The notes below the pieces were generated by a model. It saw nothing but the letters and a program-made list of their open reading frames with translations. It ran no database searches and was not told where the DNA came from. DNA of 64,000 nt from Candidatus Sulfotelmatobacter sp. GTDB taxonomy: Bacteria; Acidobacteriota; Terriglobia; Terriglobales; Acidobacteriaceae. Where the stretch lies: contig JBAUVZ010000217.1 in assembly GCA_049583505.1 (NCBI GenBank), forward strand, positions 362-64,361, written 5' to 3'. A program made the translations under genes and the position numbers. Below are positions 18,847 through 34,428 of this stretch, one piece after another (the first letter of the stretch is position 1; each line of letters opens with the position of its first letter).

Positions 18847-21072
18847 ATGCGGCGCGCGAGACACCCTGGAATCGAAAGGAGTCAGTTCTTGGCATTGGGA
18901 GTGAAGCGATTTGTTATTACCAGCCTGCTGGGTTTTTCCAGCCTGGGTTGCGCCCAGGATACGCATTTTGAACCCGACCATCAGCAGATTCCAGCACCGG
19001 ATTGCCTGTCGATGAGAGGCGCATGGGAAGGTGGATCGAAACCTTGCACCCCAGAAGACCATGAAGCGTGGCTTGCCGACATCCGGCATTGGCGCAGCGA
19101 GCACTTGATTCGCGTCGGCTACGATGGATCGCGCTACGACCTGCCCCAGCTTAAATGGACGCAATCCAGTTTTTTTCAGCCGCAAATGATGGTGCAAGAC
19201 CGCTACTTCTATGACCCGGTCGCGCGCCGCTACACCGTCGACCGTTATCTCAATGATCTGGAAAGACGCTACGGAGGCATCGACGCGGTGTTGATCTGGC
19301 CGACCTATCCGAACATGGGCGTCGACGACCGGAATCAGCACGACCTGATTCGGAGCATGCCGGGAGGGATAGCGGGAGTGCGGCAGATGATCGCAGACTT
19401 TCATAAGCGCGGTGTGCGCGTGCTGTTTCCCATGATGATGTGGGACCAGGGCACCCACGACCCCGGCAGACCCTGGCCGCAGGCGGTTGCTGAGCTGATG
19501 GCGGAAGTCGGAGCCGACGGCATCAATGGCGATACGCAGGATGGCGTTCCGCTTGCCTTTTCAACGGCCGCCGATAAAACCGGGCATCCGCTCGCCTTTG
19601 AGCCGGAGGATGGGCCCTCCGATGAGGCTCTCGCCTGGAACGTCATGACCTGGGGACAGTACAACTTCCCGTTTGTGCCTCTGGTTGACAAGTACAAGTG
19701 GCTGGAACCGCGCCACATGGTGAATATCTCGGATCGCTGGAATCGCGACAAAACCAACGATCTGCAATTTGCCTTCTTCAATGGTGCCGGGTGGGAAAGC
19801 TGGGAAAACATTTGGGGTATCTGGAACGGGATCACGCCACGCGACTCCGAAGCAGCGCGCCAGGTCGCCACCATCGAACGTGCCATTGCCCCATTCCTGA
19901 TCAGCCCGGAATGGGAGCCGCTCGCGCCGACGCTACGCTTCGGAGTTTTTGCCAGCCGCTGGCCCCGGAATGACCAGACGGTCTGGACGATCGTAAATCG
20001 CAACGACTACGACGTGGAAGGTCGCGAGATCGAACTTCCACCAGAAGAAGGAATGCGGTACTTCGATCTTTATCACGGCGCTGAACTGAAGTCCGAAAGC
20101 AATCCGGAGGGCAAGGTGGTGCTCAGCTTCGATATCGAAGCGCACGGCTACGGAGCGTTGCTGGCTACGAAAGCGGCGCCCGATCCTGGCATCCTGGCGC
20201 TCATCGCGAAAATGAAAGAAATGACGGCCAAACCATTGGCCAGTTATTCGCACGAGTGGACCGTATTACAGCAGCAGATCGTACCAATAACTGCGACTAA
20301 GCCACCCTCAGCAGGTTCCACGGCACCCCCGGCCGGTATGGTAAAGATTCCGGCCGGAAACTTTGTCTTCAAAGTGCAGGGAATCGAGATCGAGGGATCC
20401 GATGACATCGGCGTGGACGTGCAATATCCCTGGGAGGATTCTCCACGGCGCTTCCACGAACATCCCATGCAGATGAAGCCATTCTGGATCGACACCTATC
20501 CCGTCACTAACGCGCAATTCAAAAAGTTTTTGGATAGTACGCACTATCATCCGCAGGATGACTTGAACTTTCTCCGTGATTGGAAAGGCGAAAGCTTTCC
20601 CGCGGGCTGGGACAACAAACCAGTTACCTGGATTTCTTTAGAAGATGCGCGTGCTTATGCGGCATGGGCGGGCAAGCGTCTGCCACATGAGTGGGAGTGG
20701 CAGTACGCGGCCCAAAGCGGGGATGGCCGCACATATCCCTGGGGAAATGACTGGAATGCAGGCGCGGTTCCTTTGCCAGACAAAAGCCGCAGCATGCGTG
20801 GGCCGGATGCACTGGATGCGCACCCGCTAGGCAAGAGTCCTTTCGGTGTGATGGACCTCGTCGGCAATGTGTGGCAGTGGACAGAAGAGTTCACGGACGA
20901 CCACACGCGCGCCGCGATTCTGCGCGGCGGCGAGTACTATCAGCCGCAAGGTTCGATATGGTATTTCCCTGTGACCTACAAGCTCAACGAACATGGCAAA
21001 CTCCTGCTGACGGCGCCGAGCCTGGATCGTTCTGGCGGAGTTGGCTTCCGTTGTGTCCTGGATGTGGAGTAG
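18847..21072 (+). CDS. Fusion protein: N-terminal TIM-barrel-like glycosidase-like region plus C-terminal FGE-sulfatase (SUMF1/EgtB/PvdO) domain
   Basis: The C-terminal 270 aa carry FWIDTYPVTNAQFKKF, WAGKRLPHEWEWQYAA, YPWGN, GNVWQWT and GFRCV, typical of FGE-sulfatase domains. I moved the start to ATG 18847 to remove the 105-nt overlap with the preceding gene. Confidence 0.7.
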   Translation: MRRARHPGIERSQFLALGVKRFVITSLLGFSSLGCAQDTHFEPDHQQIPAPDCLSMRGAWEGGSKPCTPEDHEAWLADIRHWRSEHLIRVGYDGSRYDLPQLKWTQSSFFQPQMMVQDRYFYDPVARRYTVDRYLNDLERRYGGIDAVLIWPTYPNMGVDDRNQHDLIRSMPGGIAGVRQMIADFHKRGVRVLFPMMMWDQGTHDPGRPWPQAVAELMAEVGADGINGDTQDGVPLAFSTAADKTGHPLAFEPEDGPSDEALAWNVMTWGQYNFPFVPLVDKYKWLEPRHMVNISDRWNRDKTNDLQFAFFNGAGWESWENIWGIWNGITPRDSEAARQVATIERAIAPFLISPEWEPLAPTLRFGVFASRWPRNDQTVWTIVNRNDYDVEGREIELPPEEGMRYFDLYHGAELKSESNPEGKVVLSFDIEAHGYGALLATKAAPDPGILALIAKMKEMTAKPLASYSHEWTVLQQQIVPITATKPPSAGSTAPPAGMVKIPAGNFVFKVQGIEIEGSDDIGVDVQYPWEDSPRRFHEHPMQMKPFWIDTYPVTNAQFKKFLDSTHYHPQDDLNFLRDWKGESFPAGWDNKPVTWISLEDARAYAAWAGKRLPHEWEWQYAAQSGDGRTYPWGNDWNAGAVPLPDKSRSMRGPDALDAHPLGKSPFGVMDLVGNVWQWTEEFTDDHTRAAILRGGEYYQPQGSIWYFPVTYKLNEHGKLLLTAPSLDRSGGVGFRCVLDVE

Positions 21073-21090
21073 CTCCAGCGAGGATTCCAT

Positions 21091-23505
21091 ATGCAATGGT
21101 TTAGCGGCAAGAAAGCCTCTTGCACGCGGTTGTTTGTCAGTTGTTTTTTTCTCTTGATCCCTGCCTGGTTAGCGGCGGGAGCCCAGGCCAACCCGAGCAC
21201 GCCCAAGTTTGACGGTATTCGCGTTGACGCCCTCGATGCCGATGCATGGAACGGCGTGGTTTTCGCAGCACGGGCGTTCCGGCAGCCCTCCGATTTTGCC
21301 TTCCGGTTCGGGTCGTTCAGCCAAGCTTTCATCGATGGACCGGCAATCTTCGATGCGGTTCGAGAAGTCGGGCCCCACGCCCCGGATGCGTCGTACTGCC
21401 GCATGTCGTGGGCAGTTCCCCCGCGCAATGCACTGATCACGCTCGAATGGTCGCGGATTGACGAGACTACTGTCGTAGGAACGATCACTGCTGACTCTGA
21501 TTTCCAAATTCTTCTGGAAACCTATATTCCCCTGGCAGCGAGTTCCTGGGGTTTGCCCGGCGTGTACGCGGTAGAAGAGAGCAAGCAGGCGATTGTAGGC
21601 GAACGCTACTTTGACGGCGTCTTTGGAACGTCCAGCCAATTTGTGGTGATGATCGATCGGCCGACGATGGGAAGCGGCACGTACCCTTCCCTCGATCAAC
21701 TGCGGGACACACTGAAAAATGCTGGAGTTCTGGTCAACTCACTCGACAGCGACCCGTCGAGGAATGCAGCAGGACTCCAGTTCGTGACGGGGCAGTCGCG
21801 CACGGCGCACTTTGTGGCCACGCTGGGATGGAACAGACAGGAACTTCTTGCGCGAGCCCAGGCATTGCTTGCGCCCGGGAAGATCGATGCCATGCTCAAG
21901 AAAAGCTCCGAAGCCTACGCAGGTCGGCGGCCCGCAGCGGACGGCCTGTTTGCGGGTGCCCCGGATGCGATCGGCAATAACATGTTCTGGAACACGCTGT
22001 ACGGTCCGCAGCCCGATCTGGTGTTTCCCAGTATCAGCCGGAAAGCCGCTCACAGCGCGGGATGGGTGCTGGGAGAGTGGGACGGCTTCTTCGGATCATT
22101 GCTGAGCAGCTTGGAGGACAAGGATCAATCCCTGGCCACGATTCGAGCGCTTCTGCTGGCTCAAACGGAGAGCGGATTGATTCCCAATGGCGTTACCGGA
22201 GGTGGTGACACGCCGGATCGTTCTCAGCCTCCGGTAGGAGCGTATTGCGTTTGGAAAGTATTGCAGCGCTATCCCGACGACGAAATGCTGAGGTGGGCTT
22301 ATCCCCGGCTCAAGAAGTGGCACGAGTGGTGGTTCAAAGACCGCGGTGACGGACAGCCGCGGCGCGATGGCAACCGGGATGGACTGCTCGAGTGGGGCAG
22401 CGACCGAGGATCGGGCGGGTCGGGCGGCGGGCGCGGTTTCCTGATGCAGGCTCGCTGGGAATCGGGGATGGATGACAATCCGATGTGGGATGACGTCCAC
22501 TACGATCCGCATACCTACACCATGGACCTCGATGATGTAGGATTGAACTCACTGTATGCGCTCGACGCGGAAAGTCTGGCAGCGCTCGCCGCGCAACTCG
22601 GCAAAGAAGACGATCGGCGAACTTTCCTGGCCGATTACGAGAAGATGAAAAGGTTGGTGCGGGAGAGGCTGTGGAATGAGAGTGATGGAATCTATGAGAA
22701 CCGATTTTGGAACGGCGAGTTCTCGAAGCGGCTTTCTCCGACTAACTTCTATCCGATGCTTGCCGGCATCGCTACGCCGGAACAAGCGGAAAGGATGGTG
22801 CGCCAGCACCTGCTCAATCCTGCGGAGTTCTGGGGAAACTATGTGGTTCCAACCACTTCGCGCAGCGACCCGGTATTTGCTGACCAGTATTACTGGCGTG
22901 GCAGCATTTGGGGGCCGACCAACTACCTCCTCTACCACGCCATTGATCGTTACGGCTTCGACCAGACCGCACTGGAGTTCGCGCAGAAGAGTTATGCCCT
23001 CTTCATGGACGACTGGAAAACAAACCAGCACGACAACGAGCTCTACCACGCCTGGGGCGGCAGCGGCGGTGGCGATATCCACTACACCTGGGGCGCCTTG
23101 TTGTGTCTGATCGGGCTCGAGCAATTCATGGACGCGAATCCGTGGGACGGGTTGCGATTTGGGGCGCTGAATCCTCGCGCTGAAGGCCACTTGTATCGCG
23201 CCACATGGCAGAATCACACCTACGGCGTATCCGTCGGACCCAGCAAAACTGAGGTGGCGCGCGATGGAAAAGTGCGTTTGCAAGCGGACGCGGGAATTGT
23301 GGTGCGAAGCTACGAACAATCTCCGGCTCGTGTAACTATGAGGCTAAAGAGCGAGCGTGGCTTCCACATTACGATCAGCGAGTTCGATGCTGGGCCGGTA
23401 AAGGTGGTGATTGACGGCAAGAGTGTCCCTCAAGTCAAAGTGATAGAGGGAGCGGCTAGCTTCGCGGTTTCGGGCGGAGAGCACGTGGTGGAACTGACGC
23501 GTTGA
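21091..23505 (+). CDS. GH63/trehalase-like six-hairpin glycoside hydrolase, secreted
   Basis: GEWDGFF, PPVGAYCVWKV, ARWESGMDDNPMWDD and WRGSIWGPTNY motifs resemble GH63/GH37 (alpha/alpha)6 enzymes. Signal peptide present. Confidence 0.7.
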   Translation: MQWFSGKKASCTRLFVSCFFLLIPAWLAAGAQANPSTPKFDGIRVDALDADAWNGVVFAARAFRQPSDFAFRFGSFSQAFIDGPAIFDAVREVGPHAPDASYCRMSWAVPPRNALITLEWSRIDETTVVGTITADSDFQILLETYIPLAASSWGLPGVYAVEESKQAIVGERYFDGVFGTSSQFVVMIDRPTMGSGTYPSLDQLRDTLKNAGVLVNSLDSDPSRNAAGLQFVTGQSRTAHFVATLGWNRQELLARAQALLAPGKIDAMLKKSSEAYAGRRPAADGLFAGAPDAIGNNMFWNTLYGPQPDLVFPSISRKAAHSAGWVLGEWDGFFGSLLSSLEDKDQSLATIRALLLAQTESGLIPNGVTGGGDTPDRSQPPVGAYCVWKVLQRYPDDEMLRWAYPRLKKWHEWWFKDRGDGQPRRDGNRDGLLEWGSDRGSGGSGGGRGFLMQARWESGMDDNPMWDDVHYDPHTYTMDLDDVGLNSLYALDAESLAALAAQLGKEDDRRTFLADYEKMKRLVRERLWNESDGIYENRFWNGEFSKRLSPTNFYPMLAGIATPEQAERMVRQHLLNPAEFWGNYVVPTTSRSDPVFADQYYWRGSIWGPTNYLLYHAIDRYGFDQTALEFAQKSYALFMDDWKTNQHDNELYHAWGGSGGGDIHYTWGALLCLIGLEQFMDANPWDGLRFGALNPRAEGHLYRATWQNHTYGVSVGPSKTEVARDGKVRLQADAGIVVRSYEQSPARVTMRLKSERGFHITISEFDAGPVKVVIDGKSVPQVKVIEGAASFAVSGGEHVVELTR

Positions 23506-23856: not shown

Positions 23857-24726
23857 TCACTCTTCTGGCTGCTCCACAGTGCCGCTAAAATGGGTGATTG
23901 TTGTTTCAAAAGCGCGAGTGGTCAGGCGGCCGAGCGGCCATTTTCGCAACTCTTCTGAGAGCACCTCGATTCCCCATGCCCCGCGGTATCCGGCGTCTTG
24001 CATCGCCGCGATAAAGCCTCTAATGTCGAATTCTCCTTCGCCACATAGCCGGCGGTGGTTTACGGTGTCTTCGTGCAGGCTCCAGGGACACTCAAACGTG
24101 CCGTCGTTCAGTTCGACGCTGATGATGTACTGCACGGGAACGCGGCGCAATTCAGCGTAAGGAATTTCGAGCTTCACGATATGCCAGGTATCGAAACAAA
24201 TGCCGCCATTGCTCGCGCCGGCGCCTTCCACGAGCTTGAGTGAATCCTCCAAAGTCCGGATCATGGCGAACGGCATCAACTCGAACCCCACTTTCGTTCC
24301 GCGCTCTGCAGCCTCCGCGCACAGTTCAGCGAAAGACTCGATCAGTCGCGGCATAGGCGCTGCTTCCTGATAGAAATCGCCGACCTTTACGTGATGTGCC
24401 TGCAAAGCTTCGGCAGCATCGAGCAGCAGCTTCTTACAAATATCCGATTTCCTCTTTCGTTCGCCATCAAGAAACCAGTCGGTGAGGAATTCAAGCTCGA
24501 CGTGCTTGATCCCGTTGTCGTCGAGAATCCGCTTCATCTCCTTGAGCGTGCGCGTCCTGAGCACATGCTCAAGGTCAGCGTGCCAGATTCCAAACCCGGT
24601 GAAACCCGCTCTAGCAGCCGATTCCACGCGGTCGCGGAAATCGAAAGGGCTGTATTCTCTGTCGGTGTGAGGAAGCCCACAGGAAATGGTCCAGTAGGAA
24701 GCGAGCAGATCAACCTTGCTCTTCAT
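23857..24726 (-). CDS. Sugar phosphate isomerase/epimerase (xylose isomerase-like TIM barrel), cytoplasmic
   Basis: Family pattern GFTGFGIWH...HVKVGDF...GFELMPF...CFDTWH. It is the last gene of a tightly spaced minus-strand operon. Confidence 0.8.
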   Translation of the reverse strand: MKSKVDLLASYWTISCGLPHTDREYSPFDFRDRVESAARAGFTGFGIWHADLEHVLRTRTLKEMKRILDDNGIKHVELEFLTDWFLDGERKRKSDICKKLLLDAAEALQAHHVKVGDFYQEAAPMPRLIESFAELCAEAAERGTKVGFELMPFAMIRTLEDSLKLVEGAGASNGGICFDTWHIVKLEIPYAELRRVPVQYIISVELNDGTFECPWSLHEDTVNHRRLCGEGEFDIRGFIAAMQDAGYRGAWGIEVLSEELRKWPLGRLTTRAFETTITHFSGTVEQPEE

Positions 24727-24735
24727 GGCACATTC

Positions 24736-25713
24736 TCACGCGGCCACGGCTTCGTGCGCCATAACAGATTTCACCGCCTCGACAATCTTGTCTTCATTGG
24801 GGACGACGTAGTTTTCCAGTGGTTCGCTGTAGGGAATAGGGGCGTCGAGAGCAGTCACCATTCTGAGTGCATGCAAGCACCCGACGGCATGTTCCGCGAT
24901 CTCGCCGGCGATCACCGCAGCCGCGGACGATTGCCGCGGCGCCTGGTCTACCAACACCACTCGGCCCGTCTTTTTCACGGAATTGACGATGGTCGTGACA
25001 TCGAGCGGTGCGAGCGTCCGTGGGTCGACGACCTCGGCGCTGATCCCTTCTTTGGCCAGCCGTTCCGCCGCGGCCAGCGCCTTCTTCACCATCCAGCCGA
25101 CGGCCACAATCGTTACGTCGGTGCCGGCGCGTTTGATATCAGCAACCCCGAGCGGCACAACGTATTCGCCATCGGGCACTTCGCCTTTATCCAAGGTGAG
25201 CATGTAGGGATGCAGATACACAACCGGGTTATCGTCGCGAATAGCTGCGGTCATCAGACCCTTTGCATCGGTCGGCGTCGAAGGCACCACAACTTTCAAA
25301 CCGGGGATGCCCATCATCGTGTGGTAAATGCAGTTGGAGTGCTGGCCGGCCCATCCCGCGCAAAAACCGTAGCCGGCTTTCAGCACCACCGGCACGCTCA
25401 CTTGACCGCCTGACATGTAGCGCAGCCGAGGAGCTTCGTTGATGACCTGGTCGAAAGCAACCAGCATGAATTCGCTCATCCACAGCTCGACGATGGGGCG
25501 CAATCCGGTCATGGCAGCGCCAATACCAATGCCAATCTCGGCCGTTTCCGAAATCGGCGCGAGGCGCACGCGCTCTTTGCCGAATTTCTTGAGCATGGGA
25601 TCGCGCTCAGTCATGGCCATATTCTGGCCGTAGAAGACAACGTTGGGATCGCGCTGCATCTCTTCGATAATGGCTGCGGCGATCGCATCGCCGTACATCA
25701 TTTCTCTCGCCAT
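24736..25713 (-). CDS. 2-oxoacid dehydrogenase E1 component, beta subunit (transketolase-like)
   Basis: MTYGDAI-type N-terminus, PISE...IGIGIGAA, and a C-terminal transketolase domain DPRTLAPLD. GAGGAG lies directly upstream of the ATG. Confidence 0.9.
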   Translation of the reverse strand: MAREMMYGDAIAAAIIEEMQRDPNVVFYGQNMAMTERDPMLKKFGKERVRLAPISETAEIGIGIGAAMTGLRPIVELWMSEFMLVAFDQVINEAPRLRYMSGGQVSVPVVLKAGYGFCAGWAGQHSNCIYHTMMGIPGLKVVVPSTPTDAKGLMTAAIRDDNPVVYLHPYMLTLDKGEVPDGEYVVPLGVADIKRAGTDVTIVAVGWMVKKALAAAERLAKEGISAEVVDPRTLAPLDVTTIVNSVKKTGRVVLVDQAPRQSSAAAVIAGEIAEHAVGCLHALRMVTALDAPIPYSEPLENYVVPNEDKIVEAVKSVMAHEAVAA

Positions 25714-25722
25714 GCTCTCCTC

Positions 25723-26781
25723 CTACGCGTAAACGTATAGCAACGCCTCTTCGGGCGCGGGCAGCGGGCTTGCCAGAGCGAACTGCACGGCATCCTCCAC
25801 CTCAGCGCGGGCGGCGGCCTCAATTCGCTTAGCCGAGGATTCGGTTAGCACTCGATCTTTCAGCAGGCGTGCGCGAAAGCGTTTTATGGGATCCTTGGAT
25901 TTCCAGTGCTCGAGTTCTTTCCGATTGCCATAGACCGCGACGGCCTCGTGCTCGGGAAACTGCGTTGGCAGTGGGGGGACCGTGATTACATTGCCGTGGG
26001 CGCTGAGCCGATAGAACTTCGTTTCGACCAGACTGGGTCCCTGGCCGGCACGCGCACGATCGGCAGCTTTCGCGACAACTTTTCGCACTGCTACTGGGTC
26101 CGTGCCATCAACGGTGGCGCCAGGGATGCTGAAGGCCTCTGCTTTCTTCGACAACGGATCGCCGGCCATGGCATTGGCATCCTCCAGGCTGAAGTGTGTG
26201 TACGCCTGATATTGATTGTTTTCGAGAACGTAGACGATTGGTAGTTTCCACACCGCAGCCATGTTGAGTGACTCGAAAAACGCGCCTTGTTTCGAAGCAC
26301 CGTCACCAAAGAAGCAGTAGACGATCTGGCCGCTCTTCTTTACCTGCGCCGTCAGAGCAGCGCCCGTGGCGTGGGCGATGCTCTGGCCAATAATTCCGGA
26401 AGTGCCGGGAAAATACCGAGCCGGGTCGGCCAGGTGCATGGAGCCGCCGAAACCGTGGCACAAACCGTCCTTGCGGCCAAAGATTTCCGCCATCATGTTG
26501 CGAAGGGGGGTTCCCAGAACGATCGGGTATCCGTGACAGCGGTAACTGGGCATCACGAAATCTGTACCGCGGCGCGTAGAGAGCGCCCCGACGATGCTGG
26601 CTTCAGCGCCATCGCCCAGGTGAGAATGTCCCCGGATTACACCGGGATGTTCGATAAAAGTGCGCTTGACGGATTCTTCGAACTCGCGAATGCGAACCAT
26701 CTGAGTGTACATCCATCGCAGTTGGTCGCTGCCGGCTTTCCCTTTTCGCGGTGCTGATTTGTTTGCGGTCTTTTGGGGCAT
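25723..26781 (-). CDS. 2-oxoacid dehydrogenase E1 component, alpha subunit (TPP-dependent)
   Basis: YRCHGY and the TPP motif GDGASKQGAFFESLNMAAVWKLPIVYVLENNQY. Start set at ATG 26781, preceded by AGGAGG. Confidence 0.9.
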   Translation of the reverse strand: MPQKTANKSAPRKGKAGSDQLRWMYTQMVRIREFEESVKRTFIEHPGVIRGHSHLGDGAEASIVGALSTRRGTDFVMPSYRCHGYPIVLGTPLRNMMAEIFGRKDGLCHGFGGSMHLADPARYFPGTSGIIGQSIAHATGAALTAQVKKSGQIVYCFFGDGASKQGAFFESLNMAAVWKLPIVYVLENNQYQAYTHFSLEDANAMAGDPLSKKAEAFSIPGATVDGTDPVAVRKVVAKAADRARAGQGPSLVETKFYRLSAHGNVITVPPLPTQFPEHEAVAVYGNRKELEHWKSKDPIKRFRARLLKDRVLTESSAKRIEAAARAEVEDAVQFALASPLPAPEEALLYVYA

Positions 26782-26791
26782 ATGGCGCCTC

Positions 26792-27058
26792 CTACCTCTT
26801 CGTTCTTGCAGTCTTTGCAGCCGATTCTGCGATCTCGCAGAGCGGGTCTCCGACCGGGACCTCCACGGTTTCGTGCGCCAGGAGCCTCGTAAGTATGCCA
26901 CTAAAAGGCGATTCGAGCTCGTAGCTGACCTTTTCGGTTTCCAACTCGACCAGCGGATCGCCGGCCTTGACGCGATCCCCTTCGTGCTTCAGCCAGCGCA
27001 CCACCACGGCTTTCGTGCTAGTGACGCCGCCGGATTTGGGTACGATCACGGTTGTCAA
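26792..27058 (-). CDS. Free-standing lipoyl (biotin/lipoyl attachment) domain protein
   Basis: GDRVKAGDPLVELETEKVSYELESPFSG is a lipoyl-lysine context (ETEK). There is no E2 catalytic domain. I propose the TTG start at 27058, preceded by GAGGA; the ORF track extends to 27169. Confidence 0.7.
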   Translation of the reverse strand: MTTVIVPKSGGVTSTKAVVVRWLKHEGDRVKAGDPLVELETEKVSYELESPFSGILTRLLAHETVEVPVGDPLCEIAESAAKTARTKR

Positions 27059-27142
27059 GAATGCATCCTCAGATAAGATGCTTACGTTTCCGGAGTTCGC
27101 TTTCCCCCAGGGGCTAAAGCCCGCATTTTTGCCAGTCCGAAC

Positions 27143-27162
27143 GGCTCGGCTAAGGCCGAGCC
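27143..27162. terminator. Perfect 8-bp GC-rich hairpin between the ligase and the lipoyl-protein gene
   Basis: GGCTCGGC-TAAG-GCCGAGCC, about 35 nt downstream of the ligase stop. No U-tract, so it could be an intra-operon processing or attenuation element. Confidence 0.3.
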
Positions 27163-27196
27163 CTTGCAAAACTGATTCATGAGATAGCTATAACTT

Positions 27197-28765
27197 CTAA
27201 TGCACCTGCCGTTCGGCGTGTTTCCAGAACGGGGCACACATCTTCTTTCGATCGATTTTGCCCGCAGCGGTCTTGGGTATCTCGTCAGAAAATTCGACCG
27301 ACTTTGGAGTCTTTACTCCACCCAACTTTTGCTTGCAGTGCGAAATAACCGCTGCCTCGGTCAAGGATACGCCCGGACGAAGCACAACGAATACCTTGAC
27401 TGCCTCTCCCCATGTGTCGTGTGGAACGCCAATCACGGCACACTCGTGGACTTCAGGCAGCGCCATCACGGCCGCTTCCACTTCGGCGCAGTAAATATTA
27501 AAGCCGCCGGAGATGATCATGTCTTTCTTCCGGTCGACGATGTAGACGTAGCCTTCTTCGTCCAGGTAACCGACATCGCCGGTGTGGTGCCAGCCGTGCG
27601 CGCGGATTTCCGCGGTGGCCTCCGGCATCTTGTAATAGCCGCCACAGATGAGCGAGCCACGCGCCACAATTTCTCCGCGCTCGCCCGGCGGCAAAATTCT
27701 GCCGGCGTCGTCCATGATGGCAAGGCGCACCGCCAGCGTGGGCTTGCCGCAACTGGCTAGCCGTTCCGGATGATCCCCGGCGGCCGCTGCCGCCACTGTT
27801 TTCGAATCCAGAAAGGTCAGGACCATCGGCGCTTCCGTCTGACCATAGGACTGACACATGCATGGGCCGAAGACTTCCACCGCGTTTCTTAATTTGTCTG
27901 GAGCCACAGGCGATCCCGCCAAGAGAAAACCGCGCAGGCTGGAATAATCAAACTTGCGCGCTTCCGGATGCGCGAGCAGATTGTAAAGTGCAGTTGGGGG
28001 AAGATAGAGGTGCGTCACCCGATAGCGCTCGATATTGCGAAGTACTTCAAGCGCATCAAACCTGGGCATAATCACATTGGTCGCCCCCAGCGAACACATT
28101 ACGAATGCCAGCACGCCCGCGGCATGCGACAGCGGTGCCGTGTTCAGACACACGGGATGTTCCACATCGCCGCGCCAATAGTGCGTGGCCAACTCTGTCA
28201 TCGTACCCAGCGCGAGATTGGTAACACGAACGCCTTTCGCCGGCCCGGTGGTTCCCCCTGTCGGCACCAGTCCGGCAAGCCGGTCAGGATTTCCGTAGGC
28301 ATCGCCCCAATCCGGCACCTCAGCACCTGAGCCACGCTCCATGAAAGCCTGCAAGGATGGATCTTCGTGATCTCCGCGATCGAGACAGATTACGCCGCGC
28401 AGCGAAGGCACGCGATGCTTGATTTCGCCGACGCTGTCTCGAAACTCGCTGTGATAGAAGAGCCAAGCCATTCCCACGTAGTTCATGTATTCGACGTTGG
28501 CGTCCAGGGCGTTGCGGTAATTAATGGGCACCCACACGGCTCCTGAGCGCATGATGCCCAGCATGCAAAACAGAACTCTGGCGTCATTGTGCGAATAGAT
28601 TCCGGCAGGCTCCTGATCGCGCAATCCGCTGGCACAAAGAGCGCGAGCGATGCTTTCCGTGGCGGCTTGCATCTCGCCATACGACCACGAGCCATCGTCA
28701 GCGATGATCGCTGTGCGATCGAGGTTGTCCTCGACGCCCTTGTCGAAATAGTCGATCGCACGCAT
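27197..28765 (-). CDS. ANL-superfamily AMP-dependent synthetase/ligase (acyl-CoA synthetase-like)
   Basis: PTGGTTGPAKGV (A3 core), YGQTE, GWHHTGDVGYLDEEGYVYIVDRKKD and PKTAAGKIDRKK. Start moved to ATG 28765 (MRAIDYF...), removing a low-complexity extension that overlaps the upstream gene. Confidence 0.85.
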   Translation of the reverse strand: MRAIDYFDKGVEDNLDRTAIIADDGSWSYGEMQAATESIARALCASGLRDQEPAGIYSHNDARVLFCMLGIMRSGAVWVPINYRNALDANVEYMNYVGMAWLFYHSEFRDSVGEIKHRVPSLRGVICLDRGDHEDPSLQAFMERGSGAEVPDWGDAYGNPDRLAGLVPTGGTTGPAKGVRVTNLALGTMTELATHYWRGDVEHPVCLNTAPLSHAAGVLAFVMCSLGATNVIMPRFDALEVLRNIERYRVTHLYLPPTALYNLLAHPEARKFDYSSLRGFLLAGSPVAPDKLRNAVEVFGPCMCQSYGQTEAPMVLTFLDSKTVAAAAAGDHPERLASCGKPTLAVRLAIMDDAGRILPPGERGEIVARGSLICGGYYKMPEATAEIRAHGWHHTGDVGYLDEEGYVYIVDRKKDMIISGGFNIYCAEVEAAVMALPEVHECAVIGVPHDTWGEAVKVFVVLRPGVSLTEAAVISHCKQKLGGVKTPKSVEFSDEIPKTAAGKIDRKKMCAPFWKHAERQVH

Positions 28766-28782
28766 GACCAGATTTCCGCCAG

Positions 28783-29892
28783 TCAGTGAGTCAGACGAAC
28801 CTTGGCGAGACCATGCTCTTCCAGAACCCGCAGTATTTCGTGATGTCCAAAGGCTTCCGCGGGAGAAGCAAAACCAACCTTGCGCGGGGCCGCATGCGCC
28901 AGATGGTGTGCTGCAAACGCCTGTAACAACCCCGTCTGGCGATAACAACAGGTGCCGAAGACCACGCACTGCGCGTAATCGGTGGAACCTCGGCCCACTA
29001 CGACGTCGATGGTGCGTTGCTCGCGCGGGTTTTCGCGAGGCGGCGTTCCCGCTTGTACCGCGTTGGCCATTTCGGCGAGCTTCTTTTCCCGTTCCGCTTT
29101 CGGCAGCGGCCGAATCTGTTCTTCAAACATTTTCTCCGTGGCCGCGACACCTTCCATGATTTGACGATCGAGCAAACCGCCCATCGACCGCACATTCGCG
29201 ATCTGCGGGTGGTTCTTGAACCAAACTGGTTGCGGGAAGCCTCCCCACGCGAGAGCCAACTGAGTTTGCAAATAGCCAGGAATGGCTACATCGTAGCGAC
29301 TGGCACGCGGCCAATCCTTGTATTGATTCTGCTCCAGATAATATGCGTCCGTTTGAATGACTGCAAAAATCGTCTGCGTGGAACCAAAAGTTGGAATGCC
29401 TTTGAACATGGTGACGGTTTCGAGGGTATCGATTGCCCCGGATTCCAGGCAAAGCCGGGCGGAGGCGTCGCTGACCGCGCACATAAAAGCCGTTGCGGGC
29501 GCGGCAAGAAGGCCGCGTTCTCGGAATTTCTCGCCCCAGTTCTCGGCGACCTCACGAATCCAAGCCTGCTCGCCCCCAATGTCGATGTAATGGCAACCCG
29601 CCTTCAAAGCCGCTTCAATAACTCTCGGTCCGTTATAGATGAATGGGCCGGCCGTGTTGCAAACAACCTTGCCGCCATCGAAGATACGCACCAAGTCTTC
29701 GAGAGTGCCGGAGGTTTCCACAATCTCAAAATCGGCGCTTTCAATTCCCGGGACGTGATCCGTCACCTGCTTGATTCTCGCAGCGCTTCTGCCGGCGGCG
29801 ATGAAGGGTGTGTTGTATTCGCGGAGGAATTCGACGATCAATCTTCCGGAGAAGCCATTGGCTCCGTAGACCACTACCGGTCTTTTGCTCAT
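28783..29892 (-). CDS. Saccharopine dehydrogenase-like NAD(P)-binding protein
   Basis: VVVYGANGFSGRLIVEFL Rossmann motif typical of the family. ATG 29892 lies 9 nt after AGGAG. Confidence 0.8.
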   Translation of the reverse strand: MSKRPVVVYGANGFSGRLIVEFLREYNTPFIAAGRSAARIKQVTDHVPGIESADFEIVETSGTLEDLVRIFDGGKVVCNTAGPFIYNGPRVIEAALKAGCHYIDIGGEQAWIREVAENWGEKFRERGLLAAPATAFMCAVSDASARLCLESGAIDTLETVTMFKGIPTFGSTQTIFAVIQTDAYYLEQNQYKDWPRASRYDVAIPGYLQTQLALAWGGFPQPVWFKNHPQIANVRSMGGLLDRQIMEGVAATEKMFEEQIRPLPKAEREKKLAEMANAVQAGTPPRENPREQRTIDVVVGRGSTDYAQCVVFGTCCYRQTGLLQAFAAHHLAHAAPRKVGFASPAEAFGHHEILRVLEEHGLAKVRLTH

Positions 29893-30140
29893 GGGCACCA
29901 GCTCCTGGGAAGGTAGCCTGTTGTTGGCCTAGGCACCATTCTGCCGGGGCGCCCCCTCGGCACACACTATGGCAGCGCAACGCTGCCTGCCCCGGCGAAT
30001 GGCCGCACCCGCCTGTTGGCTAGCCTCAATCGGGCACCAGGCCAGAGGACTTCCCCTGGTTCAGATGCCGATTGTAGGCTAAAGTATCCTTTTTGCCAGT
30101 AGGCACTTTTTTGTAACCTTTGATCCTTAAGGAGACTGAC

Positions 30141-30539
30141 GTGGAAGAATTTTACTGCCCCGTGAAGCTAACCACGGACGTGATTGGCGGCAAGTGGAAA
30201 CCGCTGATTCTGTTTTATTTAGAAGGTGGCACCAAGCGCTTTGGAGAGCTTCGCAAATTGATTCCCGGCATGACCAAGAAAATGCTGACCCAGCATCTGC
30301 GTGACCTGGAGCGCGATGAAGTCATTCGCCGGAAAGTGTATGCCGTGGTGCCGCCCAAGGTTGAATATTCGCTGACGAAGCATGGAGAAAGCCTCAAGCC
30401 CATCCTCAAGCAGATGTCGGCGTGGGGCGCGAAGCACCGCAAGCGCTACGGGATTCCAAGGAGTAAGAACCGGCCGTTGATGTTTCCCAATTCTTCAAGA
30501 CAGTCCGCGGCCTCGCAGCAGGCGCTATCAAGCGGCTAG
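30141..30539 (+). CDS. HxlR family transcriptional regulator
   Basis: CPV...IGGKWK.LIL..L..G.KRF.EL...IPG...KML...LR.LE.D..I.R......PP.VEYSLT..G is the HxlR wHTH signature. GTG 30141 is preceded by AAGGAG. It is divergent from the E1 operon. Confidence 0.85.
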
Positions 30540-30563: not shown

Positions 30564-31670
30564 TCAGGCGCCCTTCCGCGTCACAACAGGTGGACCCCAA
30601 ATTTCCTCGGCCGTTTCGGCGACCAGGCGTAGCTTGGCCTCCTCATCTCCCACGCTTACCAGGTTGCCCTCGATCGTAGATGCAAAACCGCACTGCGGAC
30701 TGAGCGCCAGCCGCTCCAGAGGGATGAACTGCGAGGCTTGCTCGATGCGCTGTTTCAGTTCGTCCTTGCTCTCCAGGGTTGGCTTCTTGGAGCTGACGAG
30801 TCCCAGGACGACGGTGCGATCTTGGGGAACCTGGCGCAGTGGCTCGAAGCCGCCCGAACGCTCATCATCATATTCAAGAAGAAAGCGGTGAAAACGCGTT
30901 TTCTGAAATACCTTGGTGATCGGGCCGTAATCGCCGGAAGCATAGAACCGGCTTTGATTGTTGCCGCGGCAAAGGTGCAGGCCGAAAATAACGCCCGGGT
31001 GATTGCCAATCACCGCATTGTCCATTTCGGTGGAAAGATCGAGCAGACGGTCGGGATCATTGCCGCGCTGGCGGTATCCCTCGCGCAACTTCGGGTCGAG
31101 CAAAGCGGCATACTGCGGGGAGTCAATCTGGATATACGTGCATCCGAGGCGGATTAACTCTTCGACTTCATCCCGCAAAATGTCGACCAGATCGGCCAGA
31201 TAACTGTCAATCTTGGGATAAGCGGCAGACGACTTCTTGTTGTCGTAATAAGCCGCTGCCTGCTGTGCGCTGATCATGGTCGTTTTGGCAGGATGATTTG
31301 TACGTGCTCGTAAGTAGGTGAACTCCTCGGCGCACAAGGGGCGTTTCCGGCGCAGTTTGGAAATCACGACCGGCCGGGGCTGCAGTACCTCCTCACCTTT
31401 TTCATTGCGGAAAGGAATGGCCCAGCCGCCAAACTTATCAAAGCCCTCCACAGCATCAATCAAGTGCCCGTAGAAAGCGTAGCGGCGCATCTCGCCGTCG
31501 GTGAGTATTTCCAGCCCGGCGCGCTTCTGCAGCTCGACGGCTTCGTCCACCGCCCGGTCCTCGAGAGACTTGAACTCGGAATGTCTGATCTGTCCTTTCT
31601 CATGACGTTCGCGCGCCTCCTTCAAATACGAAGGGCGCAACAGACTTCCAACCACGTCGCTTCGATACAC
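30564..31670 (-). CDS. Cobalamin-independent methionine synthase (MetE C-terminal domain)-like family protein
   Basis: N-terminus VVGSLLRPSYLKEARE and C-terminus LSPQCGF are typical of the MetE/UROD-like family. The substrate is not inferable. Confidence 0.75.
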   Translation of the reverse strand: MYRSDVVGSLLRPSYLKEARERHEKGQIRHSEFKSLEDRAVDEAVELQKRAGLEILTDGEMRRYAFYGHLIDAVEGFDKFGGWAIPFRNEKGEEVLQPRPVVISKLRRKRPLCAEEFTYLRARTNHPAKTTMISAQQAAAYYDNKKSSAAYPKIDSYLADLVDILRDEVEELIRLGCTYIQIDSPQYAALLDPKLREGYRQRGNDPDRLLDLSTEMDNAVIGNHPGVIFGLHLCRGNNQSRFYASGDYGPITKVFQKTRFHRFLLEYDDERSGGFEPLRQVPQDRTVVLGLVSSKKPTLESKDELKQRIEQASQFIPLERLALSPQCGFASTIEGNLVSVGDEEAKLRLVAETAEEIWGPPVVTRKGA

Positions 31671-31682
31671 AAAACCTCCTTT

Positions 31683-33830
31683 TCAATGCCCCTGGACATG
31701 GGCGTCCTGATTGCGGCGAAAGATTGCATATGAGCGGATTGCGGCAGCATCATCGCGAGACAGTTCCGTCGAGAAAGAAACCATTCCTTCTGATTGCAGA
31801 TCGCCGCGCAACACCGTCTCAAACCATGTGTCGTCGGTGAGTGTGCTGCTGCGGCGCAAATCCGGCAGCACTCCTCCACTCACAGCGACATCCCCGTGGC
31901 ATCCGGCACAATAGCGTTGAAAAAGCTGCTCACCTTTGCGAACCGTTGCAGAACTCGCTGGATTTGGCAGCGCCGCCAATGGTGGCGGCTCGGTGGCCTG
32001 CAGGGGAAGCAGGCTCGCCTTCCCCCCGAGTTCGAAGACGAGCATACGGCTAATATTACGTACTCGCCCTGAAGCAAACGAGACTTCTCCCGCGGCCAGC
32101 GGAAACACGCCACCCCAACCTGCGAGTACGGCAATGTACTGTTGGCCTCCAATCTCATAAGTGACCGGACCCGCCATCACTCCGGTCTGAGCCGCGAATG
32201 ACCACAACTTCGCACCAGTATCGGCACGGTAAGCTTCGAAATTTCCGCTGGCCGTTCCTTCAAGCACCAGGTTCCCCGCCGTCGCGAGCGTACCGCCATT
32301 CCAGGGGCCGGGCCGTTCAACCGTCCAGGCAGCCTTTTGCTGCACTGGGTCCCAGGCCACCAATTTTCCTTTCACGGTACCGAGAATCATCTTCTTCACC
32401 TTGGGATCCTGCGGCATGCCGGCCGCCACTACATCGATTCCATAATTTGGGGCCAGCTTCTTCGCCAGGAAACTGTCCGGGAGCTTGTATCTGAAACCGG
32501 CATCGTTGACCGGAATGTAGGCAAGACCGGTGATCGGGCTGTACGACATCGGTTGCCAACTGTGCGCCCCAACTGGCCCGGGCACGATGGGTGCAGGATC
32601 GGCCCCAGCGTACCTCGCCACGGCAGTTTCGATGGGGCGACCGGTTCTCAGATCTACTCCACTCGCCCAGTTGACGAACGTGTAAGGCTTGGCAGAAAGG
32701 AGTTCGCCGTTAGTGCGGTCGATGACATAGAAGATGCCATTTTTCGGCGCCTGCAACAGAACTTTACGAGTACGACCGTCAATGGCGAGGTTGGCGAGGA
32801 TGATATCTTCGGCGGAGTCGAAATCCCAAGCATCGCCGGGGTCTTCCTGATAATGCCAGATGTACTCCCCGGTCTCCATTTTGAGCGCAACAATAGAGCA
32901 GGTGAACAAATTGTCGCCGCCCTTCGGGCTGCGAAATTTTTCGCTCCACGGTGTGCCGTTACCGGTGCCGATGTAGAGCTGATCGAGCTCCGGATCATAG
33001 GCGATCGCGTTCCAAACCGTGCCGCCGCCGCCAAGCTTCCACCACTCCCCACTCCAGGTCTGAGCAGCCTTCGCTAGAATCGGATTTTCAGACGGTTTCG
33101 AGCGATCGCCCGGCACGGTACAGAAGCGCCAGACTAATTTTCCGGTTTCGCTGTCGTATGCCGAAACATAACCGCGCACTCCGAATTCCCCGCCGCCGTT
33201 GCCGATGATCACTTTGCCCTTGACTACGCGTGGAGCGCCCGTAATTGTGTAGCGGAAGTTGGTATCGATGGTAAGCGTTTCCCAAACAAGACGGCCGGTC
33301 TTCGCGTCGAGGGCGATCAAGCGTCCATCGAGAGTTCCGACAAAAATCTTGCCATTCCATGCTGCGACTCCACGACTCACAACATCACAACATGCGTTCA
33401 CAGCCCAATTGCCGGGAACTTTCGGATCAAAGGACCACAGCCGTTCTCCGGTGGCGGCATTCAGCGCGAAGACTTTGCTCCATGCGCTGGTAAAGTACAT
33501 CACGCTGTCGACGACAAGGGGAGTCGCTTCCTGGCCTCTGTTCGTGTCCAGGTCGTAGTGCCAGGCCAATCCGAGTTGGGAGACATTATGATCGTTAATC
33601 TGATTCAACGGGCTGAAACGCTGCTCGCCGTAGGTGCGGCCGTAGGTCATCCAGTTCCCCGGCTCGCGATCTGCGTTGGTGATGCGAGATTCGTTGACAT
33701 CGGCAGGCTTGACAGGATTCTCGGAAGCAACTCTGTTTTGGTTGCACCCCGCGATCGCTGCCAGAAAAACTGTGAGAGCGAGAAGTCTGCTTATGCGGCG
33801 CCGCCGAAGTTTCGGATTTTGAAGTCTCAT
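31683..33830 (-). CDS. PQQ-dependent quinohemoprotein alcohol dehydrogenase (type II), probable lipoprotein
   Basis: Eight-bladed propeller W-motif repeats, a vicinal ACCD Cys pair, and a C-terminal cytochrome c domain CAGCHG. The signal has the lipobox AIAGC. Confidence 0.9.
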   Translation of the reverse strand: MRLQNPKLRRRRISRLLALTVFLAAIAGCNQNRVASENPVKPADVNESRITNADREPGNWMTYGRTYGEQRFSPLNQINDHNVSQLGLAWHYDLDTNRGQEATPLVVDSVMYFTSAWSKVFALNAATGERLWSFDPKVPGNWAVNACCDVVSRGVAAWNGKIFVGTLDGRLIALDAKTGRLVWETLTIDTNFRYTITGAPRVVKGKVIIGNGGGEFGVRGYVSAYDSETGKLVWRFCTVPGDRSKPSENPILAKAAQTWSGEWWKLGGGGTVWNAIAYDPELDQLYIGTGNGTPWSEKFRSPKGGDNLFTCSIVALKMETGEYIWHYQEDPGDAWDFDSAEDIILANLAIDGRTRKVLLQAPKNGIFYVIDRTNGELLSAKPYTFVNWASGVDLRTGRPIETAVARYAGADPAPIVPGPVGAHSWQPMSYSPITGLAYIPVNDAGFRYKLPDSFLAKKLAPNYGIDVVAAGMPQDPKVKKMILGTVKGKLVAWDPVQQKAAWTVERPGPWNGGTLATAGNLVLEGTASGNFEAYRADTGAKLWSFAAQTGVMAGPVTYEIGGQQYIAVLAGWGGVFPLAAGEVSFASGRVRNISRMLVFELGGKASLLPLQATEPPPLAALPNPASSATVRKGEQLFQRYCAGCHGDVAVSGGVLPDLRRSSTLTDDTWFETVLRGDLQSEGMVSFSTELSRDDAAAIRSYAIFRRNQDAHVQGH

Positions 33831-33846
33831 GCTGAGGCGCGCAAAA

Positions 33847-34428
33847 TCACACGTCGAAGAAGACTGTTTCGCGATCTCCTTGAAGTATCACATCGAACAG
33901 CCAATATCCGGGACGGGCTGGATCCCGGCGCGCCATGAGCGTGTCCCGCCGCTCGGGCGGAATCAGTTGGAGCACTGGGTCCTTGTCGTTGGCGGCATCT
34001 CCAGCGAAATAAACTCGCGTGTAGAGCTGCTTCAGCATTCCGCGGGCGAACACCGCAAGGGTCAGATGCGGCGCCTGCAACGTGCCGTTGGGAACGCGTC
34101 CGGGCTTTATGGTCTCAAGCACGCAACTGCCATCTTCTCCAGTGGCGAGACGACCGAAACCGATCCATCCCGGATCGAGCAGTTTGGGTTGCGAATCGTC
34201 CCGATGGTTGTACTTGCCATTGGAGTCAGCCTGCCAAATTTCCAGCATCGCATCATTAACCGGGACGCCGTCGCCATCCAGTACGCGAAACGTGATCCAT
34301 ACCCGTTCTCCCTTGGCCTGCGGACCTGCGACACACCGGACGCAGTGCTCGTCGGTGGTCAGCTCAATCCGGAAAAATGGGCCGACCGTCTGCGAGGGGG
34401 TCGGGACCAGATTCGTGTCAGAGTTCAA
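33847..34428 (-). CDS. pcaG: Protocatechuate 3,4-dioxygenase alpha subunit
   Basis: TPSQTVGPFF N-terminal motif, and it lies directly downstream of pcaH. The start is uncertain: TTG 34428 after GGAGG, or TTG 34458. Confidence 0.85.
   Translation of the reverse strand: MNSDTNLVPTPSQTVGPFFRIELTTDEHCVRCVAGPQAKGERVWITFRVLDGDGVPVNDAMLEIWQADSNGKYNHRDDSQPKLLDPGWIGFGRLATGEDGSCVLETIKPGRVPNGTLQAPHLTLAVFARGMLKQLYTRVYFAGDAANDKDPVLQLIPPERRDTLMARRDPARPGYWLFDVILQGDRETVFFDV

Follow-up and report, generated by a model that had tools for sequence, protein, structure and literature searches.

A thiamine pyrophosphate (TPP)-dependent E1-like enzyme of the QncN/QncL/QncM system passes a C2 (glycolyl) unit via a lipoyl group in the biosynthesis of tetrahydroisoquinoline antibiotics, and this system relies on an E2-like protein that has a catalytic domain, together with an acyl carrier protein (ACP) and a nonribosomal peptide synthetase (NRPS). 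A literature search on free or stand-alone lipoyl proteins yielded GcvH-type and LarG carriers only, apart from a mention of single-domain lipoyl proteins as a class in archaea (PMC3904984). By tblastn against annotated plasmids and chromids, we found that genes for E1 alpha and E1 beta (together E1ab) followed by a gene for a lipoyl protein of about 80 amino acids (aa) are a recurrent, generically annotated arrangement, as in Rubrobacter indicoceani, Shinella sp. WSC3-e, Croceicoccus marinus, and Novosphingobium sp. PP1Y. To our knowledge, none of these split clusters of cultured bacteria has been biochemically characterised. Operons of E1ab with a lipoyl-only protein may also exist in Haloferax volcanii. 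Here we describe a six-gene operon with E1ab and a free 88-aa lipoyl protein, located in a 64-kb stretch of DNA (the window) from a Terriglobales ("Ca. Sulfotelmatobacter"-like) genome. This arrangement is real, with strong conservation across loci, and in our best reading it is a split E1 of the 2-oxoacid/acetoin dehydrogenase type with a detached lipoyl carrier that was recruited to aromatic catabolism.

Six open reading frames (ORFs) were confirmed on the minus strand at 23857–29892, with gaps of 9, 9, 10, 138, and 17 nt and a Shine-Dalgarno-like sequence ahead of every proposed start. An initial annotation of the window had given these coordinates and gaps, the domains, a lysine in an ETEK context, and a divergent HxlR gene, all of which were borne out on re-examination. 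The genes and the sites within them are as follows.

23857–24726, minus strand: xylose-isomerase-like TIM-barrel protein, 289 aa, last gene of the operon (AP_endonuc_2, PF01261, 1e-27)
24736–25713, minus strand: E1 beta, 325 aa (Transket_pyr and Transketolase_C)
25723–26781, minus strand: TPP-dependent E1 alpha, 352 aa, AcoA/PDH-alpha-like (E1_dh, PF00676, 9e-67)
25936–25995, minus strand: clade-specific insertion of about 12–14 residues in E1 alpha (residues ~263–282), just after His262 (SAH-GNVITVPPLPTQFPEHEAV)
26215–26307, minus strand: TPP-binding motif of E1 alpha, G159-D-G ... E-N188-N189, with columns invariant in an alignment of 11 E1 alpha sequences, genuine AcoA included
26792–27058, minus strand: free lipoyl-domain protein, 88 aa (Biotin_lipoyl, PF00364, 5e-17), with a TTG start preceded by GAGGA
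26930–26932, minus strand: codon of Lys43, the predicted lipoyl-lysine (ELETEK43VSYELESP)
27197–28765, minus strand: ANL-superfamily acyl-CoA ligase, 522 aa (AMP-binding, PF00501, 9e-67; AMP-binding_C, PF13193, 2e-23)
28783–29892, minus strand: DUF5938 NAD(P) oxidoreductase, 369 aa, first gene of the operon (PF19362, 4e-80; Sacchrp_dh_NADP, PF03435, 5e-8)

Related loci were compiled in two samples. The genome sample comprises 80 species-level genome loci anchored on DUF5938, onto each of which the window genes were mapped, and co-occurrence was counted over the 59 loci with enough flank; the metagenome sample comprises 80 contigs (666 kb in total) anchored on E1 alpha, for which denominators vary per gene. 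Together they amount to about 160 related loci with flanks of ±10 kb, over which co-occurrence counts are not phylogenetically independent. The gene arrangement is syntenic in about 45 of the 80 species-level genomes and in 80 further metagenome contigs, which is far beyond chance. DUF5938 proteins of Terriglobales and "Ca. Sulfotelmatobacter" metagenome-assembled genomes (MAGs) are 75–96% identical to that of the window.

The best NCBIfam match of the 88-aa protein is the N-terminal lipoyl domain of AcoC, and its top NCBIfam matches are all lipoyl E2s; it also matches PRK11892, the model of the lipoyl-bearing PdhB. Its lysine is located in an E-T-[DE]-K-[AVS] hairpin (VELETEK43VSYE) and not in a biotin-type A/V-M-K-M/L motif, and the VELETEKVSYELESP motif is near-invariant in the protein across about 45 orthologs. 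From its sequence, we infer that the protein is lipoylated on Lys43. A biotin carrier was ruled out by motif and family matches; the second Biotin_lipoyl protein of the window, a biotin carboxyl carrier protein (BCCP) at 45237–45686, bears the biotin motif EVMKLM. The 88-aa protein has no match to GCV_H (PF01597) at E ≤ 1e-3, its genomic context contains no gcvP or hdr genes, and lipA, lipB, and lplA are absent among the scanned window ORFs.

The gene of this protein (lip) is a stand-alone ORF of about 80–95 aa in all orthologous loci. Among 1.8 billion representative proteins searched, all clusters with more than 50% identity to it are 88–139 aa long, and the identity of long E2 proteins does not exceed 48%. 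Linkage to E1 is close: lip is directly upstream of E1 alpha in 71 of 72 contigs, with a 254-nt gap in the remaining one, and was found in 33 of the 59 genome loci, i.e. in every acidobacterial locus with E1. From the lip stop to the E1 alpha start there are 10 nt in the window and a distance within tens of nt in the orthologs. That lip might be the fragment of a frameshifted full-length E2, a possibility raised by the initial annotation, is ruled out by its short length in all orthologs and by the E1 alpha start 10 nt past its stop; obvious sequencing frameshifts occur in two MAGs only.

E1 alpha and E1 beta were found in 36 of the 59 genome loci, and E1 beta is the next gene after E1 alpha in all 51 contigs scored (9-nt gap in the window). 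The pair has the makings of a heterotetrameric TPP-dependent E1, with an E1_dh domain carrying the GDG/NN motif, an adjacent beta subunit, and a conserved histidine in alpha. This residue, His262, is invariant across the 11 aligned sequences and is presumably the active-site histidine needed for reductive acylation. The closest entry to E1 alpha in the PDB is human pyruvate dehydrogenase (PDH) E1 alpha (3e-52). Assignment by hidden Markov models put E1 alpha below the equivalog cutoffs for both TIGR03182 (300 bits, cutoff 393.85) and TIGR03181 (215 bits, cutoff 411), and E1 beta below that of NF006667 (307 bits, cutoff 321). With TIGR03182, genuine aco-operon E1 alpha proteins score 325–344 bits and other free-lipoyl-type E1 alpha proteins 309–356 bits; by its place in this sub-cutoff zone, E1 alpha is not a true PDH E1 but belongs to the broad AcoA-like group.

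Orthology to classical AcoAB, which the initial annotation had left open, does not hold. With AcoA of Acinetobacter and Mycetohabitans, E1 alpha shares only about 40% identity; it has YRCHGYP where those have HRGHGH and forms with its Gaiellales ortholog (58% identity) a clade separate from Aco-type enzymes. Since it is equidistant (about 40%) from Aco-type and other free-lipoyl-type E1s, a substrate cannot be assigned from its sequence. The insertion after His262 is limited, within the alignment, to acidobacterial and Gaiellales E1 alpha and could form a docking site for the free carrier. It lies in the region that matches the regulatory/lipoyl-docking loop of PDH E1 alpha. In the Thermoleophilia/Gaiellales loci (L073, L074, and L078; ~700–5600), a LigM-like gene, the TIM-barrel gene, and E1ab are followed by a second, divergent E1ab pair that is 36–44% identical to that of the window, with no lipoyl gene in 21 kb; there an ACS-like 662-aa ANL protein adjoins DUF5938 in place of the FadD-like one.

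The TIM-barrel gene is confined to loci with E1 (24 of 36 with E1 versus 0 of 23 without, in the genome sample) and is found in 31 of 36 E1-anchored metagenome contigs. Its product is closest in the PDB to Lmo2234 (2g0w, 1e-24), with a weaker match to the QuiC1 3-dehydroshikimate dehydratase domain (5hmq, 2e-11). A second xylose-isomerase-like TIM-barrel gene of the window, at 4202–5083 on the minus strand, is unrelated to the E1 module by position.

No E2 core or E3 accompanies these genes. About 50 ORFs spanning the full 64 kb were scanned with Pfam, with NCBIfam used for domain assignment, and among them we detected neither PF00198 (the E2 catalytic domain) nor a pyridine nucleotide-disulfide oxidoreductase domain. 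Queries with a genuine aco E2, AcoC, a split E2 catalytic domain, and E3 matched in tblastn only the lip gene, via the lipoyl N-terminus. This agrees with the initial annotation, which had reported both as absent from the window and had asked whether they lie just beyond it; no E2 catalytic domain or E3 is encoded within ±10 kb in about 160 loci, and genes downstream of the TIM-barrel gene show no conservation across loci. An E2/E3 pair just outside the cluster is thereby ruled out for this range. The lipoyl domain is unfused, and an E2 core is missing in the window as well as in the related loci, unlike in a canonical complex.

The two genes upstream of lip behave differently. The ANL protein has FadD8 (8ivi, 2e-82) and feruloyl-CoA synthetase (8wev, 3e-64) as its closest PDB entries and falls below every NCBIfam cutoff shown. 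The DUF5938 protein has no sequence homolog in the PDB, and its AlphaFold2 model (pLDDT 91.4, pTM 0.91) has carboxyspermidine dehydrogenase, L-lysine dehydrogenase, and saccharopine reductase as top Foldseek matches (TM ~0.73, 13–16% identity), aligning over its full length to 8deb, 8h52, 3abi, and 1ff9 (TM 0.68–0.75). Its original label as saccharopine-dehydrogenase-like is therefore right at the level of the fold, in line with the Sacchrp_dh_NADP domain. Its genomic partners, a CoA ligase, a thiolase, a short-chain dehydrogenase/reductase (SDR), and an acyl-CoA dehydrogenase (ACAD), argue for a substrate class other than saccharopine, carboxyspermidine, or lysine.

ANL is paired with DUF5938 in 56 of 59 genome loci, and 23 of the 59 are acidobacterial loci that have this pair without E1. 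Conversely, DUF5938 is present in 26 of 34 E1-anchored contigs and absent in 8; these eight read MetE-ANL-lip-E1ab-TIM and lack DUF5938 and HxlR. ANL is directly upstream of lip in 40 of 46 E1-anchored contigs and absent in 6, and in some loci an SCPx-type thiolase is inserted between ANL and lip. Outside Acidobacteriota, DUF5938 is grouped with an AMP-binding CoA ligase (FadD-like or acetoacetate-CoA-ligase-like) and a "lipid-transfer"/thiolase protein, as examined in plasmids of Phyllobacterium, Variovorax SRS16, B. cenocepacia, Tsukamurella, Azoarcus KH32C, and P. aeruginosa. The SCPx-type "lipid-transfer"/thiolase protein stands beside DUF5938 in five of the six plasmids, often with an SDR or ACAD gene adjacent, and in none of these six proteobacterial and actinobacterial plasmids are E1 or lipoyl genes found beside the DUF5938-ligase group. 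Because each occurs without the other across loci, lip-E1alpha-E1beta(-TIM) and DUF5938-ANL are two separable modules. The initial annotation had proposed one coupled E1/lipoyl/ligase/reductase pathway; the neighbourhood survey upholds the linkage of E1ab with the small lipoyl protein, which is strongly conserved, whereas the coupling to ligase and reductase is not supported by the distribution of the modules. In Azoarcus, DUF5938 adjoins genes for a histidine phosphatase, a phosphotransferase, an SDR, and an ACAD, resembling levulinate (lva)-type catabolism of 4-oxo/4-hydroxy acids.

The boundary between the modules and the regulatory end of the operon comprise the following features.

27059–27196, minus strand: 138-nt spacer between ANL and lip, at the boundary of the two modules, with a stable GC hairpin at ~27143–27162 and no T-run
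29893–30140, between the divergent genes: DUF5938/HxlR intergenic (promoter) region, with a sigma-70-like match on the minus strand at 30099–30071
30141–30539, plus strand: HxlR-family regulator (PF01638, 8e-35), divergent from the operon

The RNA of the 138-nt spacer folds with −48.9 kcal/mol (z = −2.4) and contains the hairpin GGGCUCGGCC-UUAG-CCGAGCC, which may serve for transcript processing or attenuation between the modules. Terminator prediction flagged no site within the spacer, and in orthologs its length ranges from 17 to about 250 nt. No RNA element or riboswitch was found in the operon spacers, which gave no Rfam match, and the hairpin lacks a T-run. The HxlR gene is divergent from DUF5938 in 46 of the 59 genome loci, and in six metagenome contigs it is directly divergent from lip-E1ab-TIM, without DUF5938 and ANL.

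Beyond the regulator, the minus strand of the window continues with the following genes, of which those at 30564–36740 recur around the operon.

30564–31670, minus strand: MetE-like (YxjG/1ypx-type) single-domain protein (PF01717; 1ypx, 5e-64; clusters with 54 loci)
31683–33830, minus strand: type II quinohemoprotein alcohol dehydrogenase with pyrroloquinoline quinone (PQQ) and cytochrome c (TIGR03075, 662 bits; 1kv9, 5e-230; 59 loci)
33847–35140, minus strand: pcaGH, protocatechuate 3,4-dioxygenase alpha-/beta-like (Dioxygenase_C and PCDO_beta_N)
35226–36740, minus strand: aldehyde dehydrogenase (ALDH; PF00171, 7e-176; clusters with 51 loci)
42886–49278, minus strand: set resembling acetovanillone/4-hydroxyacetophenone kinase, biotin carboxylase, and phosphatase (acvABCDEF/hpe-like), with HAD phosphatase, HMGL/PYC_OADA carboxylase, BCCP, PPDK_N, cupin, and PEP-utiliser mobile-domain proteins

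In the window, pcaGH directly follows the PQQ alcohol dehydrogenase and is in turn followed by ALDH. The set of aromatic genes extends to a GCV_T-domain gene at 54277–55674, which encodes a LigM-like O-demethylase, and at 54277–60317 comprises LigM-like, MTHFR-like, extradiol (glyoxalase-fold) dioxygenase, PIG-L, RraA/LigK-like aldolase, and PrpF/LigU-like isomerase genes; a PcaL-like fusion (abhydrolase and CMD) and PcaB are encoded at 62033–63992. The window further holds an Amidohydro_2 protein and a TonB-dependent receptor. When all ORFs from the ~160 loci were clustered, the recurrent neighbours were ALDH (51 loci), PcaH (41), a PcaF-like thiolase (35), a TonB-dependent receptor (30), Amidohydro_2 (19), and PcaB (17); hydantoinase A/B-type carboxylase subunits, PcaL, and a PobA-like hydroxylase also recur near the cluster. 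The PcaH-like neighbours cluster in 41 loci, and the pcaGH products are 66% identical to a Gaiellales neighbour. A VanA-like oxygenase gene precedes TIM-lip-E1ab in a Blastocatellia locus, and a Gaiellales locus has a LigM-like gene before TIM-E1ab and carries orthologs of the PcaH, PcaD/C, and PIG-L genes of the window.

Because the pca, ALDH, and O-demethylase genes are conserved and glycoside hydrolases are not, the setting is the funnelling of (methoxylated) aromatics to protocatechuate and not sugar-phosphate metabolism. A sugar or ketose-phosphate substrate, to which the TIM barrel and the glycoside hydrolases at the other end of the operon might point and which the initial annotation had hinted at, is not supported on the same grounds. 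The operon is best explained as a composite catabolic operon under a divergent HxlR-type regulator, inside a lignin-aromatic/protocatechuate degradation island. As to the remaining gene content, the glycoside hydrolase block at 8555–23505 abuts the operon and comprises GH18, a weak GH39-like match, an alpha-L-arabinofuranosidase, two MGH1/GH63-like proteins, an alpha-amylase, DUF2961, and a 785-aa FGE-sulfatase-domain protein; it is not conserved with the operon in other loci. The kinase/carboxylase set is followed by an ACS-like 678-aa ANL protein (49959–51995) and a FadB-like protein (52037–54250), and parts of the meta- and ortho-cleavage routes of protocatechuate lie side by side at 54277–60317 and 62033–63992. 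In L139, L150, L167, and other loci, the genes upstream of HxlR are hydantoinase A, hydantoinase B, a URO-D-like gene, (TetR), Amidohydro_2, and a PcaF-like thiolase; the hydantoinase A/B set, absent from the window, suggests an ATP-dependent ketone carboxylation route (acetophenone/acetone-carboxylase-type) in these relatives.

We put the chance somewhat above even that the locus encodes an AcoAB-like E1 that cleaves side chains and works with a detached lipoyl carrier, which is discharged and re-oxidised by E2 and E3 encoded elsewhere, and that DUF5938-ANL acts separately. The TIM-barrel isomerase or dehydratase would prepare the substrate of E1, an AcoAB-like alpha2beta2 TPP enzyme that would cleave a side-chain C–C bond of an aromatic ketol, diketone, or 2-oxoacid and then reductively acylate lipoyl-Lys43 of its dedicated 88-aa carrier with the unit so formed. 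An E2 catalytic domain encoded elsewhere would then discharge the acyl-dihydrolipoyl carrier to CoA, and a dihydrolipoyl dehydrogenase, likewise encoded elsewhere, would re-oxidise it. We infer that both act in trans because neither is encoded nearby and because Shinella and Phaeobacter have separate genes for such functions. DUF5938 and ANL may activate a carboxylic-acid intermediate to its CoA ester and catalyse an NAD(P)-dependent reaction that precedes thiolytic or beta-oxidation-like breakdown. As substrates of E1, an attractive candidate class is that of the Hibbert ketones and derivatives of G-diketone, with aryl-glyoxylates as another possibility. GP-2 is an aryl analogue of acetoin. 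Enzymes that cleave GP-1, GP-2, and GD to vanillin and a C2 unit have yet to be identified in N. aromaticivorans (PMC8612281), and an E1 of the proposed chemistry would fit these missing enzymes.

Several observations weigh against this reading. The three Thermoleophilia loci have E1ab and TIM with no lipoyl gene within reach, and E1 may accordingly not strictly need a free lipoyl carrier. The tight linkage of ANL and lip leaves room for a more direct functional coupling between the modules. The QuiC dehydratase domain, the nearest characterised relative of the TIM barrel, is distant. For the source organism, the evidence on E2 and E3 covers one 64-kb window and the ±10-kb flanks, and our searches for biochemical literature on the E1ab and free-lipoyl architecture (including DUF5938, unattached lipoyl domain, and acetoin dehydrogenase with lignin) returned none.

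That the locus instead encodes an ordinary acetoin or pyruvate dehydrogenase E1 is unlikely. AcoC and E3 would then be encoded elsewhere, the lipoyl protein would be a dispensable extra domain like that on alphaproteobacterial PdhB, and the aromatic context would be coincidental. The TIGR03182 score of E1 alpha, in the sub-threshold zone of genuine aco E1 alpha, and the matches of the lipoyl protein to the AcoC N-terminus and to the PdhB model PRK11892 speak for it. They are countered by the low identity of E1 alpha to AcoA and its separate clade, by its insertion next to the catalytic histidine and its YRCHGYP in place of HRGHGH, and by the presence of pca, LigM-like, VanA-like, and ALDH genes around the cluster in two phyla. 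Strict association with a TIM barrel is foreign to aco clusters, and no acetoin reductase, butanediol dehydrogenase, or AcoR-type regulator lies beside the module in the window, where the regulator is of the HxlR type. Very unlikely, in our estimation, is a lipoyl protein that serves only as a two-electron acceptor (a natural "DCPIP", 2,6-dichlorophenolindophenol), with the acyl unit released as free acid and re-activated by ANL to a CoA ester without any E2. Aco-type E1s are classically assayed as acetoin:DCPIP oxidoreductases, which counts in its favour along with the frequent adjacency of ANL and the absence of an E2 gene nearby. Such a route would be energetically wasteful, its carrier would still require E3-type re-oxidation, no thioesterase is conserved in the operon across loci, and E1 modules without ANL exist.

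In a model after the initial annotation, the acyl or glycolaldehyde unit formed by E1, perhaps from a ketose phosphate supplied by the TIM isomerase, is parked on the lipoyl protein as on an ACP and handed to ANL and the reductase, the six genes forming one pathway with no need of E2 or E3. This is a poor fit to the data and, in our judgement, quite unlikely, even though the operon gaps of 9–17 nt, the position of ANL directly upstream of lip in 40 of 46 contigs, its retention beside lip after loss of DUF5938 in the MetE-ANL-lip-E1ab-TIM variant, the ANL enzyme that adjoins the E1ab-lip trio in Croceicoccus, and the absence of E2 and E3 within ±10 kb in more than 150 loci can all be read in its favour. 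DUF5938 and ANL are self-sufficient with thiolases, SDRs, and ACADs in many phyla and stand without E1 in 23 of 59 acidobacterial loci, while E1 contigs occur without ANL (six) or without DUF5938 (eight), and the 138-nt hairpin spacer falls exactly at the module boundary. ANL is moreover a standard FadD/feruloyl-CoA-synthetase-like CoA ligase, the context is aromatic and not one of sugar phosphates, and no ACP or NRPS genes were found. We likewise consider it improbable that the carrier is the diffusible part of a self-contained, E2-less system in which an Aco-like E1 cleaves lignin-derived aryl ketols or diketones (Hibbert ketones such as GP-2) or aryl-glyoxylates after isomerisation by the TIM barrel, and ANL, thiolase, and DUF5938 take over the acetyl or aroyl unit. 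If this were true, the missing side-chain-cleaving enzymes of G-diketone/GP catabolism would be identified, and a lipoyl protein would be used like an ACP in degradation.

With a side-chain-cleaving E1, a detached carrier, and E2 and E3 in trans as the preferred reading, the locus bears on three questions. A detached lipoyl carrier that is obligatorily paired with E1ab and has no E2 core nearby is recurrent in Acidobacteriota, Sphingomonadales, Rubrobacter, and Rhizobiaceae, and this architecture poses the problem of how an acyl-dihydrolipoyl group can be unloaded when no scaffolded E2 is at hand. In Acidobacteria that are abundant in peat and soil, the trio has a conserved place beside protocatechuate, O-demethylase, ALDH, and PQQ alcohol dehydrogenase genes and is thereby a testable candidate for TPP-dependent side-chain cleavage of ketols, diketones, or aryl-2-oxoacids derived from lignin. 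DUF5938, with its saccharopine-reductase fold, forms together with a CoA ligase and an SCPx-type thiolase a second widespread uncharacterised module.

Among known systems, the canonical pyruvate, 2-oxoglutarate, and branched-chain 2-oxoacid dehydrogenase complexes share with the window locus the E1 chemistry, the TPP motif, the catalytic histidine, and the lipoyl-lysine motif, but the locus lacks their E2 core and E3, and its E1 alpha and beta stay below the NCBIfam equivalog cutoffs. AcoABC(L) is similar in its heterotetramer-type TPP E1, which falls into the same sub-threshold TIGR03182 group, and in the AcoC N-terminus as nearest relative of the lipoyl domain; in the Mycetohabitans aco cluster no E3 is annotated beside acoABC either. 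It differs in that the lipoyl domain of the window is a separate 88-aa protein with no AcoC alpha/beta-hydrolase- or PF00198-type transferase nearby, that the partners are TIM, DUF5938, ANL, and aromatic genes where aco has acetoin reductase, and that the E1 alpha of the window reaches only about 40% identity and bears the clade-specific insertion. Compared with the Qnc system, the module stands in a catabolic context without ACP, NRPS, or E2 catalytic domain; the domains of Qnc-type acceptors (PF00198, PP-binding, and condensation) are absent among the scanned window ORFs. With saccharopine reductase, carboxy(nor)spermidine dehydrogenase, and L-lysine dehydrogenase, DUF5938 shares the full two-domain fold with its N-terminal Rossmann domain (TM 0.71–0.75), but identity is 13–16% and its partners are CoA ligases and thiolases, not amino-acid or polyamine genes.

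The split clusters of cultured bacteria are numerous enough that the initial annotation, in which free lipoyl carriers were known mainly from glycine cleavage and sHdr systems, understated how common they are beside E1ab. Their E1 alpha proteins are 38–43% identical to that of the window. The trios of Rubrobacter indicoceani and Shinella stand in a sugar-kinase/GlpD context, and Shinella encodes an 80-aa lipoyl protein, a separate 225-aa E2 catalytic protein, and lipA. Phaeobacter inhibens, too, has separate genes for the lipoyl protein, for an E2 catalytic protein of 292 aa, and for LpdA; there a block of SDR, M24, E1 alpha, E1 beta, and lipoyl genes is followed by ALDH, the catalytic-only E2 protein, and LpdA. 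In Croceicoccus marinus (pCME4A9I) and Novosphingobium sp. PP1Y (Mpl), SDR-M24-E1a-E1b-lip adjoins genes for a PQQ dehydrogenase, for Rieske oxygenases, and for an ANL enzyme. The M24 protein of this block is creatinase/Xaa-Pro-peptidase-like, and the PQQ dehydrogenase of the sphingomonads is of the membrane type. The gene order is E1a-E1b-lip in these clusters and lip-E1a-E1b in the window, their partners are M24 and SDR or sugar kinases and GlpD in place of TIM, DUF5938, and ANL, and the separate E2 catalytic gene near the trio in Shinella and Phaeobacter (in the latter also LpdA) has no counterpart near the module of the window. What they have in common with it is the adjacency of E1 alpha, E1 beta, and a lipoyl protein of about 80 aa, to which the sphingomonad clusters add the Rieske oxygenase, PQQ dehydrogenase, and ANL genes of their surroundings.

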